A stretch of 27,934 nt of DNA from a virus. The first letter of the stretch is position 1; each line of letters starts with the position of its first letter. The notes under the pieces were generated by a model. The model was not told the origin of the DNA. It saw nothing but the letters and a program-made list of their open reading frames with translations, and made no database searches. This document shows positions 5 to 15,283 of the stretch, in pieces. Location of the stretch: UHGV virus genome UHGV-0188207. One strand, written 5' to 3'. A program made the position numbers and the translations under genes.

Positions 5-495
5 ATGAATATGAAAAAAGCATTAATTACAGGTATTACAGGTCAAGATGGTTCCTACTTGGCTGAATTCCTTCTTGATAAAGGGTATGAAGTGCATGGC
101 ATTAAACGTCGAGCATCTTCATTTAATACAGAGCGTGTTGATCACATTTATCAAGATCGCCACAATCAAAATCCAAATTTCTTTCTTCATTACGGTGATT
201 TGACAGATACTTCAAACTTGGTTCGCCTCATTAAAGAAATCCAACCAGACGAAGTTTATAACCTTGGCGCTCAATCTCATGTAGCGGTTTCATTCGAATC
301 ACCTGAATACACTGCTGACGTGGATGCGATGGGGACTTTACGTCTGCTGGAAGCGATTCGTATTTGTGGGCTAGAGAAAAAAACACGTTTCTATCAGGCA
401 TCAACTTCTGAACTCTTCGGCTTAGTTCAGGAAATCCCGCAGCGAGAAACAACACCATTCTACCCTCGTTCGCCTTATGCTGTTGCGAAGATGTA
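5..495 (+). pseudogene. gmd: GDP-mannose 4,6-dehydratase, 5' portion (about 164 codons) truncated by IS3 insertion
   Basis: Translation [51 protein letters not shown]... matches the Gmd N-terminal Rossmann region (GxTGQDG motif); the reading frame runs into the IS3 terminal repeat at 496 and ends inside the IS. Confidence 0.8.
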
Positions 496-525
496 TGATC
501 CTACCCACGTAATATGGACACAGGC

Positions 526-1392
526 CTAAGCGAGGTTCTTGTTTTCAAATTGTTCCGGACTGAGGCCGCCACACCAACTGTGCCGCCGCCACCGATTGTA
601 ATCACATTCGATATAATTAAACACCGTTGCCCGCATTATTTCCCGGCTGATAAAGTGTTCTCCATGGATACATTCCACTTTCAGCGAATGAAAGAAGCTT
701 TCCACGCAGGCATTATCGTAGCAGCAACCTTTTGCGCTCATACTTCCACGCAGATTATGCCGCTTCAGTTGCGCCTGATAATCTGCTGAACAGTACTGGC
801 CTCCACGGTCCGTGTGAACGATAACGTTCCGGGGCCTCTTACGCCGCCACAGCGCCATCTGCAGGGCATCGCAGGCCAGTTGCGCCGTCATGCGTGGCGA
901 CATTGACCAGCCAATAACGGCACGTGACCACAGGTCAATGACCACTGCCAGATACAGCCAGCCTTCATCTGTACGTAAGTACGTGATGTCTCCTGCCCAC
1001 TTCTGGTTCGGGCCACTGGCGTAAAAATCCTGCTCCAACAGATTTTCTGACACAGGCAGGCCGTGTGCGCGGTAGCTGACCGGGCTGAACTTCCGGGAGG
1101 CCTTTGCCCTCAGTCCCTGACGGCGCAGGCTTGCCGCCACGGTTTTTACGTTAAAGGGGTAACCCTGAGCACGCAGTTCATCCGTCAGGCGTGGGGCACC
1201 GTAACGCTGTTTTGACCGGGTAAAAGCCGCGAGGACAACGCTGTCGCAGTGTTGGCGGAACTGCTGACGCGTGCTTATCCTTGTCCGCCGCTGACACCAC
1301 GTATACCAGCCGCTGCGGGCCACCCGGAGCACGCGGCACATTGCTTTGATGCTGAACTCAGCCTGATGTTTTTCAATAAAGACATACTTCAT
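526..1392 (-). CDS. insF: IS3 transposase OrfB (DDE catalytic domain)
   Basis: 288-aa [39 protein letters not shown]...; IS3-family OrfB recognised from sequence; overlaps orfA in the -1 frame. Confidence 0.9.
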
Positions 1393-1963: not shown

Positions 1964-2632
1964 TTAACTTTCTGCCGCCAAAGTGCCGCCACTGCATTTG
2001 TCGCCTAAACGCCTATTCGAAACGATTAATCTCTCGGCGATCTTAATCTTGGAGAGCTTATCTAGGCAGATAAAGCATATTGCTACTCCCGATACCACAA
2101 AATAGCTGCTTAAACCAAAGTATTGCCAAGTAGTTAGATGGTTTATCTTCTCCATCATCTTAGCACTTACTACAACAGAATAACTAAAAGGAAGTGCTAC
2201 GATGAGACTGCTCATGAAGTAAATTAGAGTTGTTATGAATTTTATTAATTTTCTATATATGCTGTATTTATATCTTTTTTTATTCCATGCGAATATTTCT
2301 TTATGGGTGGTAATGGAAATTAGACTTTGACATTTGGAATAATTATCTATATCGCTAACGGGGTTTGTTGTGTTGAGTAATATTAATCTTTGTTTTTTTG
2401 TCAATGTGTTATCTTTGGTTAATGCAGCAATGCCGTAATCTTCCGCCAGTTTTTTGAAGGTCGGATCTTCACTGCTTTTATACATCTGATATGAAAATTC
2501 GCTAATGTTTTTACGTGATGTGAATAGTTTATCTTTTTTATAAGTCCACCCTGTTTTAAGCCCTAATAAGGATATAATGGCAGATAGGGAAGGGAATAAT
2601 ATTTTTATAAGTAACTCTAGTTCGCTATTCAT
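1964..2632 (-). CDS. Hypothetical membrane protein (about 3 predicted TM segments), AT-rich cargo gene between integrase and att
   Basis: 222-aa ORF; start ATG 10 bp after the int stop with a GAGGT RBS; hydrophobic stretches LIKILFPSLSAIISLLGL, LIKFITTLIYFMSSLIVALPF, YFGLSSYFVVSGVAICFICL; the 3' end runs into GC-richer att-flanking DNA, so the true stop is uncertain. Confidence 0.5.
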   Translation of the reverse strand: MNSELELLIKILFPSLSAIISLLGLKTGWTYKKDKLFTSRKNISEFSYQMYKSSEDPTFKKLAEDYGIAALTKDNTLTKKQRLILLNTTNPVSDIDNYSKCQSLISITTHKEIFAWNKKRYKYSIYRKLIKFITTLIYFMSSLIVALPFSYSVVVSAKMMEKINHLTTWQYFGLSSYFVVSGVAICFICLDKLSKIKIAERLIVSNRRLGDKCSGGTLAAES

Positions 2633-2642
2633 AAATTACTAC

Positions 2643-3659
2643 TTACCTCAAATTAAATAAAGGATTTTTAGTTACGGCATCTTCTAAATGGTCTGGGGCG
2701 AAGTGTGCATAGACCATGGTCATTTTTATATCTGAATGTCCTAGGATATCCCGCAAAACCAATATGTTTCCACCATTCATCATAAAATGGCTAGCGAATG
2801 TATGACGCAGAACGTGAGTACATTGACCCTCTGGCAGATCGATACCAGCCCGCTTTACTGCACGCTCAAAGGCTTTTCTGCATGGGGTGAATAACTTCCC
2901 CCTATTCTTAGGCAGTTCTTCATATAAATCCTTAGAAATAGGCACAGTTCGGTTTTTCTTGCCTTTGGTCTTGGTATAAGTGATACGGTATTTTGATACC
3001 TGATGACTCTGCAGGTTTTCGGCTTCGCTCCAGCGTGCGCCGGTGGCCAGGCATATTTTTGCAATCAAAAGCAGGCTGGAGCTTTGAGAATCGGCGCAGG
3101 CATCCAGCAGACGTTTAATTTCTTCCGGGGTCAGGAACGCCAATTCACTCTCAGCAATTTTAAATGTTGGCAGCCCAGCAAGCGGGTTGGGGGCTGACCA
3201 GTGGCCCAGCTTTTTCAGTGTACCAAAAACAGATGATAGATTGCGCTGTTCAAGGTTTACCGTGCGGGGCTTAACGGGCGACATAAACGTGCCATCTTCA
3301 TTTCGTACTTCACCTTTTAACCGTGCTTCGCGGTATTTCGTAAAGTCACCGGCTGTCAGTTCTGAGGCGATGGGGTCGCCTAGACCATTACAGATAATTC
3401 TAAGTTTCGCCATGAGGCGCTTGGGGTCTGCGAGTGTCTGACCATACAGGGAATACCAAAGCTCAATTAATTCTGATAGGTGTCGCCGATCATCCTTTTC
3501 TCCTAACCACGGTTTTTTGTTCACTTCTTCCATTGTGAAGCTTTCAAATGCAATGGCTTCGCCTTTGGTAGCAAATTGCTTACGCACGCGCTTACCATTG
3601 CGTCCATTGGGATAGCACTCACACAACCATTTTCCGTTCGGCTGTTTTCTGATGGTCAT
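2643..3659 (-). CDS. int: Tyrosine integrase, P2/186 family
   Basis: 338-aa ORF with C-terminal catalytic region HVLRHTFASHFMMNGGNILVLRDILGHSDIKMTMVYAHFAPDHL (R..H..R..Y tyrosine recombinase signature); adjacent to the att core. Confidence 0.9.
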   Translation of the reverse strand: MTIRKQPNGKWLCECYPNGRNGKRVRKQFATKGEAIAFESFTMEEVNKKPWLGEKDDRRHLSELIELWYSLYGQTLADPKRLMAKLRIICNGLGDPIASELTAGDFTKYREARLKGEVRNEDGTFMSPVKPRTVNLEQRNLSSVFGTLKKLGHWSAPNPLAGLPTFKIAESELAFLTPEEIKRLLDACADSQSSSLLLIAKICLATGARWSEAENLQSHQVSKYRITYTKTKGKKNRTVPISKDLYEELPKNRGKLFTPCRKAFERAVKRAGIDLPEGQCTHVLRHTFASHFMMNGGNILVLRDILGHSDIKMTMVYAHFAPDHLEDAVTKNPLFNLR

Positions 3660-6559: not shown

Positions 6560-6786
6560 TGGCTGATGCAATGGATCTCGTACAGCAGCGCGTTGAAGAA
6601 GAACGTCAGCGCCATATCCGTGCTGCCCGTGCCAAAACGCCGGGCGTGTCCCGCGTGCTTTGCATTGAGTGTGAAGCGCCAATTCCGCCAGCACGCCGCC
6701 GCGCCATTCCAGGTGTGCAGCTTTGCATTACCTGTCAGGAAATCGCAGAGCTGAAAGGCAAACATTACAACGGAGGTGCTGTATGA
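6559..6786 (+). CDS. TraR/DksA-family C4 zinc-finger protein
   Basis: 75-aa ORF with CIECEAPIP...CITCQ four-cysteine motif, as in small TraR/DksA-like proteins of P2-like phages. Confidence 0.7.
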   Translation: MADAMDLVQQRVEEERQRHIRAARAKTPGVSRVLCIECEAPIPPARRRAIPGVQLCITCQEIAELKGKHYNGGAV

Positions 6787-7640
6787 GCACCATCCTGAAA
6801 TGGGCGGGAAATAAAACCGCCATTATGTCCGAACTGAAAAAACACCTTCCTGCTGGCCCGCGACTGGTTGAACCTTTCGCGGGTTCCTGTGCTGTGATGA
6901 TGGAGACGGATTACCCCAGCTATCTGGTTGCGGATATTAATCCTGATTTAATCAACCTCTATAAAAAGGTTGCCGCTGATTGTGAATCGTTTATATCTCG
7001 CGCCAGAGTTTTATTTGAGATCGCAAACAGGGAGGTGGCTTATTACAACATAAGGCAGGAGTTTAATTACTCCACTGAAATTACTGATTTCATGAAAGCG
7101 GTATATTTCCTGTATCTCAATCGTCATGGTTACCGTGGATTATGTCGCTATAACAAGAGCGGGCATTTCAACATTCCGTACGGTAATTATAAAAATCCGT
7201 ATTTCCCTGAAAAGGAAATTCGCGCATTTGCAGAGAAAGCCCAGCGTGCAACGTTTATCTGCGCAAGCTTTGATGAAACGCTGGCGATGCTGCAGGTGGG
7301 GGATGTGGTGTATTGCGATCCGCCGTATGACGGTACGTTTTCCGGCTATCACACTGATGGTTTCACTGAAGATGACCAGTATCACCTGGCATCCGTTCTT
7401 GAACATCGGTCATCAGAAGGACATCCGGTCATTGTTTCTAACAGTGATACATCCCTGATCCGTTCGCTGTATCGCAATTTTACTCACCACTACATCAAGG
7501 CAAAACGCAGCATCGGTGTAGCAGCTGGTGAGAGTAAATCTGCAACAGAAATCATCGCTGTTTCCGGGCCGCGCTGCTGGGTGGGATTTGATCCTTCGCG
7601 TGGCGTGGATAGTTCTGCCGTGTACGGAGTGCGTGCATGA
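6783..7640 (+). CDS. dam: DNA adenine methyltransferase (Dam-like, D12 class)
   Basis: [18 protein letters not shown]...FAGSCAV...[11 protein letters not shown] (DPPY catalytic motif and FxGxG AdoMet motif); ATGA-coupled to flanking genes. Confidence 0.8.
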
Positions 7641-10979: not shown

Positions 10980-11948
10980 TTATTTATAATATGCTGACTT
11001 CAAAACCACTCGTCTTTCAACCTGCTGTGATAGCATTACAGCGTTAGTCCAATCTTTTGGATACCTTATTTCTTCTATAACACGAATATAAGCACATACT
11101 TTATTTTTTCCCTCTCCTTTGGCATAAGTAACCTCTAGATTATTAAATTTCAATAAGTGCTCTCTTCTTTGGTAAGTAAAACAGCCGTAATCACGGACAT
11201 CAGAAGAAGTAATAGCATGAGTTGAAGGAAACCGAACTAGTAAATTTCTCAAGTAGGGAATAATGTCCAAACTCGTTGCTTTGTTTTCTTCTCTGCGACT
11301 CTTTCTGAACATATGTCTCCAACCCAGCCGTGTAAGCTCGATTTTCCCAAGCACCGGAGATGTGATTTCTTTCTGTTCAGAATAACGTTTTTTAACAAAC
11401 GCTCGCCGATTATTAAGTAGTGAGTTTCTTCTTCTTACATGGATTCCTTTTGCTCCAGTTTCACCTGCACGTACCATGGACATACAGCGAGCCAGGTCAA
11501 ACCGTGTGGCCGGAGTGATTAAGTGATATTCTCCATAAGTTTGGTTTTTAAGGGTAGTGTTTGGATGTATATAGGCCCAAAATGCTTTACGATTAGTTCT
11601 GTCAACCCAAACGACACATATATGGTGAGTTGTCCTTTTGGCTGCTTTTTTTGCGGCCGAATTTAATACAAAACCTTTCTCTAATAAATGACCATAAGTT
11701 GCCCCTGATTTAACTTGCGACAATATAAGCATTCTTTCTTTTGATGCCCATGGATGTTCGAAGGATAATATTAAATCTATTTTTGAATTGTCGTCTTCCC
11801 TGGAACCCCAGTGCCCCTCTCCTCTACAAGCAAGAATGAATTGACTCATTGCATAAGATTCGGCGTCACTGCCGTTAACTGAGTTAAACTGTCTTGTTTC
11901 TAGCACAGTTGGTATTGGTCGTGATGCAAGTAAACTGAAAGATCCCAC
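10980..11948 (-). CDS. Hypothetical protein in the AT-rich accessory region (candidate defence/cargo gene)
   Basis: 322-aa ORF with a GTG start and GGAGA RBS; low GC compared with the phage core; possible nuclease-like D...QxK pattern (KIDLILSFEH...LSQVKSG), which is very weak evidence. Confidence 0.55.
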   Translation of the reverse strand: MGSFSLLASRPIPTVLETRQFNSVNGSDAESYAMSQFILACRGEGHWGSREDDNSKIDLILSFEHPWASKERMLILSQVKSGATYGHLLEKGFVLNSAAKKAAKRTTHHICVVWVDRTNRKAFWAYIHPNTTLKNQTYGEYHLITPATRFDLARCMSMVRAGETGAKGIHVRRRNSLLNNRRAFVKKRYSEQKEITSPVLGKIELTRLGWRHMFRKSRREENKATSLDIIPYLRNLLVRFPSTHAITSSDVRDYGCFTYQRREHLLKFNNLEVTYAKGEGKNKVCAYIRVIEEIRYPKDWTNAVMLSQQVERRVVLKSAYYK

Positions 11949-12021
11949 TTATAGTTCTCTCCAAAAAATTGCATAATCTTGAACGCTAAAAAATAGTATA
12001 CAAACTAAAGTATTTTTTCAT

Positions 12022-12240
12022 TTAATTCAATGTATTGGCTAAAATTAAGACATTTATAGCTATATGTACTAGATAACATAGCGTTGTTTTCCTTTTGAAA
12101 TCTCTTCTTGTGGTAACACAACAGTATTTACTCAAGTAGTTTGTCACTGCATGGGGAGATTTTGCTATGTCCGCGGCATCATACAGATGCGATAGATTTT
12201 CAGCATGACCTTGGGTAGCAAATCTGTAGGTATCATCCAT
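12022..12240 (-). CDS. Possible small ORF upstream of the 322-aa gene (uncertain)
   Basis: 72-aa ORF on the same strand 73 bp upstream of the 322-aa gene; marginal RBS spacing. Confidence 0.25.
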   Translation of the reverse strand: MDDTYRFATQGHAENLSHLYDAADIAKSPHAVTNYLSKYCCVTTRRDFKRKTTLCYLVHIAINVLILANTLN

Positions 12241-12385
12241 TGCACCTCAAAGTAACTCTGGTGCATACCTATGCTGCATGAAAATGAATGATCGCTAGTG
12301 GATCGTTTATGTCGAAGCCTGCCAGTTCTGACGGGCTTTTGCTTATGTTATGCAACTGCATGAAAACCACTACACAAAGCGGGCA

Positions 12386-12404
12386 GGCGTGGCGGGGATA
12401 CGAG
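12386..12404. other. Candidate cos (cohesive end) core GGCGTGGCGGGGATACGAG
   Basis: First 13 nt GGCGTGGCGGGGA match the 186/P2 cos 19-mer as I recall it (GGCG[T/A]GGCGGGGAAAGCA[T/C]); the 3' six positions diverge. Confidence 0.4.
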
Positions 12405-12556
12405 CGCGCGCTAAGTCATATAAGAGTTATATATTGATTTGATTGCTGGACATGCATACAGTATCGCTCTATCATCTAATAAATCTTAGAGTATTTGACA
12501 ATGTTTGGATAAAATGGAACCTAACTTATTCATAATCCGCTAAACAGGGATGTCAG

Positions 12557-13471
12557 ATGCCATACCAATTGGTAGAGCTTAGCCCCGTAGCTAACGATCT
12601 TGAACAGTTAGGAACCAAAGAGAAGTTTTGGTTCTATTTCTCCGATGACACTGTAAATTTGCAGTTGTTTAAGTACTCTAGGCCAGGTACTGGCGAGCAT
12701 TGGTCTGAAAAGTGTGCTGCTGAGTTATGTCATTTGCTTAACATTCCACATGCTAGCTATGATTTGGCGCGATACAATGGTCGATTCGGTGTGGTGACTC
12801 AGAATATCATTCCATCTGGTTTCCGGATGGTAATGGGAAATGAAGTGCTTCACAGTTCGACATTCGATTATCCTGGGCCTTTACAAGCCGGGGAAAAGCC
12901 GGTAAGGGTCAGAGAACACACTGTCACAAGGGTATTGGGTTGTTTGGATAGGGAATCTATCAAGCCTCCTCCGAGTGTATATGATCTAACCGGGCTAAAT
13001 GCAGCAGATGTATTTTGTGGATATTTGATGCTCGATGCACTTGTGAGTAATCAAGATCGCCATCATGAAAATTGGGCGATCATGCTTAACAATGAAACTG
13101 GTGAGCAGTTTTTGTGTCCAACATACGATCATGCCGCTAGTTTAGGAAGGGAGATGTTAGATGATGAGCGTAACGAACGGCTTAATACTAAAGATAAAAA
13201 TCGACAAATCCCATGTTTTGTAAGAAAAGCTCGCTCTGAGCTATTCAAAGCAAAAACTGATAAAAAGCCCTTGCTGACCGTTGAAGCATTTCAACATGCA
13301 GTTGAAGGGAGAGTTGCCGCTCGCGACCATTGGTTAGGTAAGTTGAGCGTTTTAACAGAAGATTCCATTACAGATGTGTTTAACCAAGTGCCTTCATCGT
13401 GTATATCCGACAGTGCACGTAGATTTGCAACGTTAATGGTAATGGAAAATCGCAGAAGGTTACTAGAATGA
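12557..13471 (+). CDS. HipA-family (HipT-like) Ser/Thr kinase core lacking the HipA N-terminal subdomain
   Basis: 304-aa ORF with LGTKEKF (cf. HipA GAQEK loop), DALVSNQDRHHENW (catalytic loop, cf. HipA GATDGHAKNF) and CPTYDHAAS (cf. HipA PFYDIIS); AGGGA RBS; motif comparison from memory only. Confidence 0.6.
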   Translation: MPYQLVELSPVANDLEQLGTKEKFWFYFSDDTVNLQLFKYSRPGTGEHWSEKCAAELCHLLNIPHASYDLARYNGRFGVVTQNIIPSGFRMVMGNEVLHSSTFDYPGPLQAGEKPVRVREHTVTRVLGCLDRESIKPPPSVYDLTGLNAADVFCGYLMLDALVSNQDRHHENWAIMLNNETGEQFLCPTYDHAASLGREMLDDERNERLNTKDKNRQIPCFVRKARSELFKAKTDKKPLLTVEAFQHAVEGRVAARDHWLGKLSVLTEDSITDVFNQVPSSCISDSARRFATLMVMENRRRLLE

Positions 13472-14208
13472 CTAATACAAACTCCGTTTACGTCGCATGG
13501 CAGGCACCAGATACCAGAGACTGGCATGTTGTTGGTAACTTGCAAGAGCGCAAATCGGGGTATGTTTTCAGGTATACCAAAGGTGCTCTTAAATCTACTA
13601 AATTTACAAAGTTTAGCGGCATGAGTGATGTTCGTGAAACTTATGTTTCGGAAGAATTGTTTCCTCTTTTTAAAAATCGCCTTTTATCACCGAGACGTCC
13701 AGAGTATCCGAGTTTCATTAAATGGCTTGGATTTGAAGAAGATAAGGTAAATCCTATCGATATTCTTGCTCGCTCGGGAGGCTTACGAAGCACTGATCAG
13801 CTGCAGATTTTCAAAAAAATTGATGTTGATTCTGATGGTAACTTTGAGCATTTTTTCTTCTTACATGGACTTGGTTACTTAAATAGCTTAGCTAATGCTC
13901 GTGTATCTGAATTGAAACCGGGGCAAATTTTGCGTCTTTGCTTGGATCTTCAAAATGAATACGATGGGGATGCTGTTGTCGTTCGTGCAGATAAACCAGC
14001 TGAAATCGTTGGTTACTGCCCTAGGTATTTAAGTAATGATATCAAGAAGATGTTATTGGATGATCCAAAATCAATCACTTTAACGGTCGAAAAGATTAGC
14101 GATGATGCTCCTCATAACTATCGGTTATTATGTAAATTATCAGGAGTACTAAGCCAAGCCTGTCAATCGACGCTGATTCCTCAGGATGAGTTTGAACCTA
14201 TTGAGTAA
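13468..14208 (+). CDS. Protein with C-terminal HIRAN-like domain and an N-terminal region resembling the HipA N-subdomain (HipS-like)
   Basis: 246-aa ORF, ATGA overlap with the kinase gene; C-terminal DGDAVVVRADKPAEIVGYCPRYLSNDIKKML resembles the HIRAN signature; N-terminal FPLFKNRLLSPRRP / NPIDILARSGGLRSTD resemble HipA FNFFDNLLPDSP / FDLLSEIGRDSVG. Confidence 0.5.
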   Translation: MTNTNSVYVAWQAPDTRDWHVVGNLQERKSGYVFRYTKGALKSTKFTKFSGMSDVRETYVSEELFPLFKNRLLSPRRPEYPSFIKWLGFEEDKVNPIDILARSGGLRSTDQLQIFKKIDVDSDGNFEHFFFLHGLGYLNSLANARVSELKPGQILRLCLDLQNEYDGDAVVVRADKPAEIVGYCPRYLSNDIKKMLLDDPKSITLTVEKISDDAPHNYRLLCKLSGVLSQACQSTLIPQDEFEPIE

Positions 14209-14211
14209 ATG

Positions 14212-14242
14212 AAGAAAAGCCACCAAACGGTGGCTTTTCTTA
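14212..14242. terminator. Bidirectional hairpin terminator between the convergent HIRAN-protein gene and the portal gene
   Basis: AAAAGCCACC-aaac-GGTGGCTTTT stem-loop flanked by T-rich sequence on both strands. Confidence 0.5.
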
Positions 14243-15283
14243 TTATGGGACTATATCTAGCGAGTAGGTATTAAACTGTATCGCCTCCTTGCCAAGCCAA
14301 TCATTCATCTCCTGTAATCGCTTTTGTAGTGGCATTAGCTCATTTCGGACGAATACACGGCTTGCCTTTTCCACATCCCCAAACCCCCCAACATTATTCG
14401 GCATAATCCCCATCATTTGCGGCGGCACGCGGTGCGCTGCCATCATGTCATCCCGACTCACGTTCTTGATGTTAAGAAATTCATCCTTCGCCGCGACTTC
14501 TGACAATGGGATGATCTGAAGCCCGTCTTTTTTGCCGTTAGGTGAGTACATAAACAGGTTGCGGAAGTTGCCTGGACCTTTGGCGCTTTTCATCGCGTTG
14601 CGGAGGTTGTTCACATCCTCCTGATTCTGCGCGGCATCGGTCATGTACATGATGAAGCCTGCATGGCTGCCGTTGATGTAATACTTACGGCGGAACAACG
14701 TGGCGGACTCGTTGAGCAGGGCTGACGGAATGGCAGAAAGATAACCGGGCAGGCCGTAGATCTCTTGGTTAATATCCGGTTCCATCAGATGAAAGATGCT
14801 GCCTTTCGTGAACTGATACGGCTGCGTAGTCATGCCGTATTGCACAAACCAGTAGGTATCCAGGTCTAACCCGCGTCGGGTGTATTTTGCCAGCGCAGGT
14901 TCAAGGGCGATAACTTCACCGAAGCGGTTCGTGCGTTTCTCCAGGTAGGCGTTACCAAATACCAGATAGTCCTGCACAAAACGTGAAAAAGCCTGCTGGC
15001 TGAGCAGCGGGTGAGGGATATAGGTGCTGGTCAGAATGTTGCACTTTACTGCAATCGGTGAGCTGTGGTGTACGGCGGCGCGGAATGTTCGCGCCAGGCC
15101 GTCGAAACTCACAGGCGGCTCATACCAGCGGTCCATCTGTACGCATTCCACATAGTCCAGCAGTTCGCGACGGTCCAGAACAGGAACGGGATCGCCGAAG
15201 CTGAATGCTTCGGCTGAAGTCTGGCTTTTATGCTGGATCTGATTCATCGCCGCTGCGCGGTTTTTCTTACTCTTTCCCATCAA
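14243..15283 (-). CDS. Q: Portal protein gpQ
   Basis: 346-aa ORF; size, position (divergent from the O-N-M-L operon, next to terminase) and sequence family typical of P2 Q. Confidence 0.85.
   Translation of the reverse strand: MMGKSKKNRAAAMNQIQHKSQTSAEAFSFGDPVPVLDRRELLDYVECVQMDRWYEPPVSFDGLARTFRAAVHHSSPIAVKCNILTSTYIPHPLLSQQAFSRFVQDYLVFGNAYLEKRTNRFGEVIALEPALAKYTRRGLDLDTYWFVQYGMTTQPYQFTKGSIFHLMEPDINQEIYGLPGYLSAIPSALLNESATLFRRKYYINGSHAGFIMYMTDAAQNQEDVNNLRNAMKSAKGPGNFRNLFMYSPNGKKDGLQIIPLSEVAAKDEFLNIKNVSRDDMMAAHRVPPQMMGIMPNNVGGFGDVEKASRVFVRNELMPLQKRLQEMNDWLGKEAIQFNTYSLDIVP

Follow-up and report, generated by a model that had tools for sequence, protein, structure and literature searches.

What does a gene pair that couples a short HipA-like kinase to a HIRAN-domain protein do in a prophage, and is the pair new? 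The pair in question occupies positions 12557-14208 of UHGV virus genome UHGV-0188207, a stretch of 27,934 nucleotides (nt) that we call the window throughout and that is a P2/186-like prophage of Escherichia coli. A preliminary description, made from the DNA letters and their open reading frames (ORFs), proposed that the two genes form an undescribed defence or toxin-antitoxin module. Its reading of the genes and their domains withstood the analysis, while its claim of novelty did not: the pair is hipIN, which is also PADLOC system PDC-M03 and the 'HIRAN-kinase' of an earlier survey. As to function, we consider it probable that the pair is a prophage-borne kinase toxin with its regulator, serving phage exclusion or defence.

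Domain architecture of the two proteins

The pair consists of the following elements, with protein positions given in amino acids (aa):

12557..13471, plus strand: hipI-type gene for a short HipA-family Ser/Thr kinase, 304 aa (PADLOC, PHROGs, AlphaFold2 and Foldseek)
12602..12628, plus strand: Gly-rich (ATP-binding) loop EQLGTKEKF, aa 16-24; G19 and K23 invariant even at 22-38% identity
13049..13075, plus strand: catalytic loop NQDRHHENW, aa 165-173; D167 aligned to HipA D309 and CtkA D155, N172 to HipA N314
13118..13141, plus strand: Mg-binding motif PTYDHAAS, aa 188-195; D191 aligned to HipA D332 and CtkA D179; D191 and S195 invariant
13468..13471, plus strand: ATGA overlap that holds both the gene 1 stop and the gene 2 start (seen in the sequence)
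13468..14208, plus strand: hipN gene, 246 aa
13468..13821, plus strand: N-terminal domain of hipN, about aa 1-118, similar to HipS and to HipA N-subdomain-1
13846..14151, plus strand: C-terminal HIRAN domain of hipN, aa 127-228 (Pfam HIRAN, expectation value (E) 1.1e-13, above the curated cutoff)

Both reading frames are present as first described, and their four-nucleotide overlap suggests translational coupling. Gene 1 matches the PADLOC model PDC-M03A over its full length (E 2e-122) and belongs to phrog_8728. Pfam HipA_C recognizes it weakly and under the curated cutoff (E 3.6e-4), single-sequence and profile searches of the PDB returned weak matches only (CtkA, E 3e-4), and the NCBIfam search gave nothing useful. 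The fold relationships of both proteins rest on AlphaFold2 models and Foldseek comparisons. The kinase model, built from a 32-sequence alignment spanning 57-100% identity to the query, has a predicted local distance difference test score (pLDDT) of 84 and a predicted template modelling score (pTM) of 0.86. Its best match among solved structures is the HipA-fold kinase CtkA (E 7e-9, TM 0.69/0.73), followed by HipA of E. coli and Shewanella (E 9e-6 to 1e-3) and then by HipT (7wcf, 8ezr_B, 7vkc). These matches and the alignment of the catalytic residues bear out the suggestion that gene 1 encodes a HipA-fold kinase without N-subdomain-1, which had been drawn from LGTKEKF (aa 18-24), NQDRHHENW and PTYDHAAS, all of them found in the translation. 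The absence of the subdomain follows from the chain itself, which begins right at the Gly-rich loop.

Residues G19, K23, K39, D167, R168, H169, N172, W173 and D191 are invariant in kinase homologues down to 22% identity, including a protein from a Clostridioides phage, and HipI is likely an active kinase. H169 aligns with HipA H311 in the profile alignment, and K39 falls on HipA K181 with low confidence in hhalign, whose greedy N-lobe alignment to HipA cannot be relied on near the Gly-rich loop. Aligned by hand on its motif, EQLGTKEKF appears to correspond to the HipA loop S150-VAGAQEK, which puts E16 and L18 of HipI at the positions of autophosphorylated serines (E16 at that of HipA S150 and HipT S57). 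All 32 aligned sequences share E16. T20, which directly follows the loop glycine, does not vary among the aligned gammaproteobacterial homologues or in the two Vibrio pairs, though the C. difficile phage protein departs from this. HipI may be regulated differently from HipA and HipT.

Gene 2 matches PDC-M03B over its full length (E 3e-93), and PHROGs lists both protein families as 'unknown function'. Pfam Couple_hipA, the HipA N-terminal domain, covers aa 20-72 under the curated cutoff (E 0.018), and sequence and profile searches of the PDB with HipN found nothing significant. The AlphaFold2 model of HipN (pLDDT 88) matches the HipS chains of HipBST complexes in Foldseek (7ab3_E at E 2e-3, 8ezr_A and 7vkb_B; TMt 0.63-0.72), presumably through the N-terminal domain (Foldseek gave no aligned ranges), and hhalign places HipN 8-106 on HipA 4-96 with E 0.0012 for the pair. 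The C-terminal half of the model matches the HIRAN domain of HLTF (E 3e-5) and lp_0118, a HIRAN protein from bacteria (3k2y). Gene 2 had been described as a HipS-like region fused to a HIRAN-like fold around the motif DGDAVVVRADKPAEIVGYCPRYLSNDI; both halves are recovered, and the motif lies at aa 166-192.

The pair is a catalogued module

Gerdes, Baerentsen and Brodersen (mBio 2021, PMC8262856) defined hipIN as a short core HipI kinase followed by a downstream HipN that joins a HipS-like domain to HIRAN. Their set comprised only 14 hipIN modules, none of them tested. The likeness of the window pair to hipIN is complete in architecture: the kinase is short and lacks N-subdomain-1, its gene comes first, the operon is bicistronic and contains no HipB. 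At 304 aa the kinase lies inside the 279-321 aa range of the module, its Gly-rich loop sits near the N terminus, three core Hip motifs (Gly-rich loop, catalytic and Mg-binding) are conserved, and the partner is of the HipN type, HipS-like plus HIRAN. The kinase-first order and the lack of a HipB-like helix-turn-helix (HTH) gene, singled out from the start as unusual, are real and are features of this module.

Two further catalogues hold the same pair. In PADLOC it is PDC-M03: both window proteins match the A and B models end to end, and the genes are adjacent with a 4-nt overlap. In the survey of Rousset et al. 2022 (PMC9122126), Table S5 (P2 hotspot) lists WP_001146828 and WP_000185757, the RefSeq accessions at the locus of E. 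coli SCU-115 that is 100% identical to ours, and Table S6 gives the name 'HIRAN-kinase' to a homologue in a prophage hotspot of Vibrio crassostreae ZF-91. The latter has the same two genes in the same order, and each of its proteins is 35% identical to its counterpart in the window from end to end. There the pair is listed and named only; HIRAN does not occur in Table S2 of the cloned and tested systems. As a sequence finding, then, the locus adds nothing beyond what three groups had catalogued; it is a good, catalogued, still unvalidated candidate and not a discovery.

Spread and conservation

Each of the two proteins has hundreds of full-length homologues, and HipN-like proteins alone form at least 316 clusters (50% identity) at E 1e-30 or better. 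The order kinase-then-HIRAN with a stop/start overlap of 4-14 nt occurs in the window and in four further genomic contexts: at the same site of a Klebsiella P2-like prophage, in an E. coli island with AlpA and primase genes (71% identity), between housekeeping genes of V. cholerae, and in an integrase-bearing island of Ectopseudomonas. The number of homologues, together with the recurring order and overlap, shows that the pairing is not due to chance. The same order is found in temperate Vinavirales (tectivirus-like) elements of Vibrio cyclitrophicus, with a 4-nt overlap and adjoining an integrase (L015 2039-3732), and in the C. difficile phage phiCDKH02, where the genes are adjacent without overlap and again adjoin an integrase (L016 2092-3681). 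The range of the cassette thus extends across virus realms and bacterial phyla. In the homologous loci examined, the pair is accompanied by neither a third gene nor an HTH gene; the HTH genes upstream of it in phiCDKH02 belong to the phage's own ImmA/XRE immunity region. The kinase and its HIRAN partner are a mobile two-gene unit.

Such mobility invites a reading in which the pair has no defence role at all and is a classical addiction module, a toxin-antitoxin system that stabilizes prophages and other mobile elements by post-segregational killing, with HIRAN acting as a DNA tether or in the control of expression. Hip modules are type II toxin-antitoxin systems, roughly one P2 hotspot in four has a maintenance (partition) function, and the pair rides on a P2-like prophage, the AlpA/primase island, an integrase island, the Vinavirales elements and a C. 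difficile phage. Yet the unit includes neither an HTH protein nor any other sequence-specific DNA-binding autoregulator, and HIRAN binds ends rather than operators. The location in the window is a validated defence hotspot, and the V. cholerae pair is fixed among housekeeping genes, where there is no element to stabilize. We regard an addiction role as unlikely.

The three domains also occur on one polypeptide: fused kinase-HipS-HIRAN proteins, termed HipL, exist, and we count them in favour of functional coupling between kinase and partner. Two long proteins were considered as further fusions of this kind and rejected. P0269 (419 aa) carries secretin domains with a HipN fragment and is probably an insertion or a gene-calling artefact. 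P0255 (408 aa) is a HipN homologue with a C-terminal extension, which weakly resembles a restriction-endonuclease fold (pPIWI_RE_REase, E 0.0017, under the cutoff). In several database sources, homologues of HipN go under the label 'restriction endonuclease'.

A cargo slot beside cos

The pair is accessory cargo of the prophage, in a hotspot that lies near cos between gpA and gpQ, and the following features delimit the pair:

12386..12404, plus strand: cos site of P2/186 type, 19-nt cohesive-end sequence GGCGTGGCGGGGATACGAG; left edge of the cargo slot
12447..12475, plus strand: promoter-like site TGGACA, 17-nt spacer, TATCAT (consensus scan, 10/12 matches), about 80 nt upstream of hipI
14215..14238, no strand assigned: GC-rich hairpin AAAAGCCACC-AAAC-GGTGGCTTTT, read from the sequence and not reported by the scan
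14243..15283, minus strand: portal gene

The cos-like site to the left and the portal gene to the right had both been anticipated. The former agrees with the annotated P2 cosL (GGCGAGGCGGGGAAAGCAC) at 14 of 19 positions, and its flanks are alignable as well. From cos to the stop codon of gene Q the distance is 167 bp in P2, which has no gene there, against 1838 bp in the window; the extra length identifies an inserted cassette. Also as anticipated, this is AT-richer DNA, with a GC content of 0.39-0.44 across 11001-14500 compared with 0.52-0.63 in the structural and morphogenesis genes to the right. The site at 12447..12475 is a candidate promoter of the cassette's own; the region overall is poorer in promoter-like sites than shuffled sequence, which makes the assignment weak. 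The cassette runs opposite to the late operon. The hipN and portal genes converge, with their stops at 14208 and 14243, and the hairpin between these stops is probably a bidirectional terminator, placed like the annotated P2 terminator tQ.

A stretch of about 1.9 kb around the pair is 100% identical to E. coli SCU-115. At 95% identity or more the pair is present in 21 of 5426 complete E. coli genomes, with the portal gene adjoining in every one, while a megablast of GenBank phages with the cassette gave no match. By this measure the cassette appears to be known from prophages and not from close sequenced virions.

Placed directly beside cos and the packaging genes, the pair might be thought to serve the lytic cycle of the P2-like phage itself, for instance by phosphorylating host factors in replication or packaging, and to be silent in the lysogen; DNA ends do arise in P2 replication and packaging. 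We find this highly improbable. A lytic function is hard to reconcile with the rarity of the pair among E. coli genomes and with P2, which manages without a gene between cos and Q. Its opposition to the late operon, low GC content and promoter-like site of its own speak against such a function too, and the same cassette is also found outside phages.

Proposed function

Several features of the locus favour a defence role. Experiments support the gpA-gpQ region as an anti-phage hotspot (PMC9122126), in P2 this region holds old and tin, and the cassette is low in GC, runs opposite to the late operon and has a promoter-like site of its own. Precedents among related systems are the kinase-dependent phage defence of HipAD and the neutralization of HipT by bound HipS. 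The sensor-coupled abortive infection sketched in the preliminary description is plausible and coincides with the published hipIN hypothesis, in which HIRAN recognizes phage DNA ends or replication intermediates, the kinase is activated and the infection is aborted (PMC8262856). In this scheme, the N-terminal domain of HipN would dock on the HipI kinase and its HIRAN domain would bind DNA 3' ends. The HipI-HipN complex would be inactive in the lysogen. Upon infection by another phage, HIRAN would bind abnormal ends of DNA, or intermediates of its replication or degradation, and this binding would alter the grip of the HipS-like domain on the kinase. The kinase would then phosphorylate an essential host factor, by family analogy perhaps an aminoacyl-tRNA synthetase; translation would halt, the infection would abort and the lysogen population would be protected.

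A number of observations weigh against this scheme or against defence in general. The P2 hotspot also holds non-defence cargo, for example partition systems and cytolethal distending toxin (PMC9122126), and a different system from it, 'Exonuclease + HipA' (pFR108), is among the additional tested, not validated, systems of the same study. The PDC systems of PADLOC are unpublished and unvalidated candidates. In the searchable literature, outside of which lie subscription-only papers, we found no experiments that concern HipI/HipN, PDC-M03 or a kinase paired with HIRAN. No defence genes are found among the neighbours of the V. cholerae pair. The tRNA-synthetase target is only an analogy, since in structure HipI resembles the secreted H. 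pylori kinase CtkA more closely than it does HipA or HipT. The phage specificity of the trigger is left unexplained, because DNA 3' ends are plentiful in uninfected cells and in P2 rolling-circle replication. Finally, HipN may not inhibit as HipS does: the position that corresponds to HipS Trp65, the inhibitory wedge, seems to be an invariant glycine, G104, similar to G94 of HipA (the mapping is a transitive hand alignment through HipA and is weak), and the nearby W86 is not kept in distant HipN proteins.

The last point is what one might expect if HipN were not an antitoxin at all, but the obligatory subunit or the targeting adaptor in a split kinase. Its HipS-like domain would complete the kinase as N-subdomain-1 does in active HipA, and HIRAN would bring the holo-kinase to DNA 3' ends, where it would phosphorylate DNA-bound proteins such as phage replication and recombination factors or single-stranded DNA-binding protein (SSB); the outcome would be direct interference and not growth arrest. 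In keeping with this, the N-terminal domain of HipN aligns along the whole of HipA N-subdomain-1, the glycine at the apparent wedge position is that of HipA, W86 is not kept in distant HipN proteins, the single-chain HipL is hard to square with a labile-antitoxin scheme, and eukaryotic HIRAN domains recruit enzymes that act at DNA ends. It is a rather unlikely explanation all the same: the HipS-like proteins so far tested neutralize their kinase, Gerdes et al. class HipN with the putative antitoxins (PMC8262856), and the known substrates of Hip kinases are all translation factors, none of them DNA-bound.

A variant of the defence role concerns the ligand. HIRAN could sense short 3'-OH deoxyoligonucleotides or deoxydinucleotides from the degradation of phage or host DNA instead of long phage ends. 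In that case hipIN would be a kinase defence gated by a small nucleic-acid ligand, with HipN acting as an allosteric switch and not as a labile antitoxin. The hint comes from a 2025 NAR paper (PMC11706625), according to which about one third of Gram-positive genes for diDNase, a deoxydinucleotide-specific nuclease, adjoin HipA + HIRAN pairs; the adjoining diDNase could be a signal-clearing enzyme. No DEDD nuclease adjoins the pair in the gammaproteobacterial loci examined, and we hold this variant to be very unlikely.

We retain a kinase toxin for phage exclusion, with HipN as its regulator, as the probable function. If true, hipIN would be a kinase-based abortive-infection system that senses via a DNA-end-binding HIRAN domain, a domain otherwise known from eukaryotic replication-fork remodellers. 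Should hipIN be shown to work in this way, it would settle whether a HipS-like domain can be a ligand-controlled switch on a Hip kinase. The locus is a handy test case: the host is E. coli, the cassette is a compact 1.8 kb, and the hotspot has validated defence neighbours.

Neighbouring genes in the window

Left of cos, in low-GC DNA and in the slot that holds old and tin in P2, lies an orphan ORF at 10980-11948 (minus strand, 322 aa), which RefSeq annotates in the identical SCU-115 locus as 10980-11849 (289 aa). It has no match in PADLOC, PHROGs, NCBIfam, the PDB or phage sequences searched by tblastn, and only sub-threshold matches in Pfam (LPD3, E 0.042; DUF4365, E 0.12). We considered it as a third gene of the system and rejected it: it lies on the other side of cos and is missing from the cassette-bearing Klebsiella P2-like prophage. 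It is separate cargo, an unannotated candidate for another hotspot function. Two small ORFs flank or cover cos, at 12022-12240 (minus strand, 72 aa) and at 12288-12437 (plus strand, 49 aa), the second overlapping it; they have no family matches and are probably not genes.

The prophage also encodes a Dam-like (D12 class) N6-adenine methyltransferase at 6723-7640 (plus strand), just upstream of its replication gene gpA; PADLOC assigns this enzyme to the orphan methyltransferases (E 1e-111). An ORF at 1964-2632 (minus strand, 222 aa), which lies immediately outside the integrase gene of the prophage (2643-3659), gives a full-length match to phrog_21256, of unknown function (E 3e-154), and none in Pfam; this ORF may be a further moron, at the end of the prophage that has the attachment site. 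At the left end of the window, an ORF at 5-529 (plus strand, 174 aa) matches positions 1-162 of the 332 of the GDP-mannose 4,6-dehydratase profile, that is, its first half, and abuts a transposase with an rve-family (DDE) integrase core at 526-1392 (minus strand). An insertion sequence may have disrupted a sugar-nucleotide gene beside the prophage. This left flank, with its dehydratase and transposase ORFs, differs from SCU-115, though the cassette is identical.

Comparison with related Hip systems

HipBST of E. coli O127 and Legionella is similar to the window pair in dividing the HipA fold between two proteins, the core kinase HipT and HipS, the counterpart of N-subdomain-1. By direct binding, with Trp65 as a wedge, HipS neutralizes HipT. 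HipBST has three genes in the order B-S-T, with the regulator before the kinase and an HTH protein, HipB, among them, whereas the window has two genes, the kinase first and no HTH gene, and does not belong to HipBST. HipS has about 100 aa and no HIRAN domain, whereas HipN's HipS-like domain is fused to one, and the Trp65 wedge is apparently not kept in HipN. At the autophosphorylation sites of HipT, Ser57 and Ser59, HipI apparently has E16 and L18 (hand alignment), and in structure HipI matches CtkA better than HipT. The pair is not a canonical HipBA either: the HipBA kinase of about 440 aa includes N-subdomain-1 and follows hipB, while the 304-aa kinase of the window has this subdomain on its partner and no hipB.

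HipAD, or DS-6, found with DefensePredictor (PMC13092281), is likewise a two-gene E. coli system in which a HipA-family kinase has a partner unrelated to HipB, and its kinase-dependent phage defence has been validated. The partner, however, contains DUF3037 and DUF1829 and not a HipS-like domain with HIRAN. HipL has the same three domains as the window pair (kinase, HipS-like and HIRAN), and differs in carrying them on a single polypeptide from a monocistronic operon.

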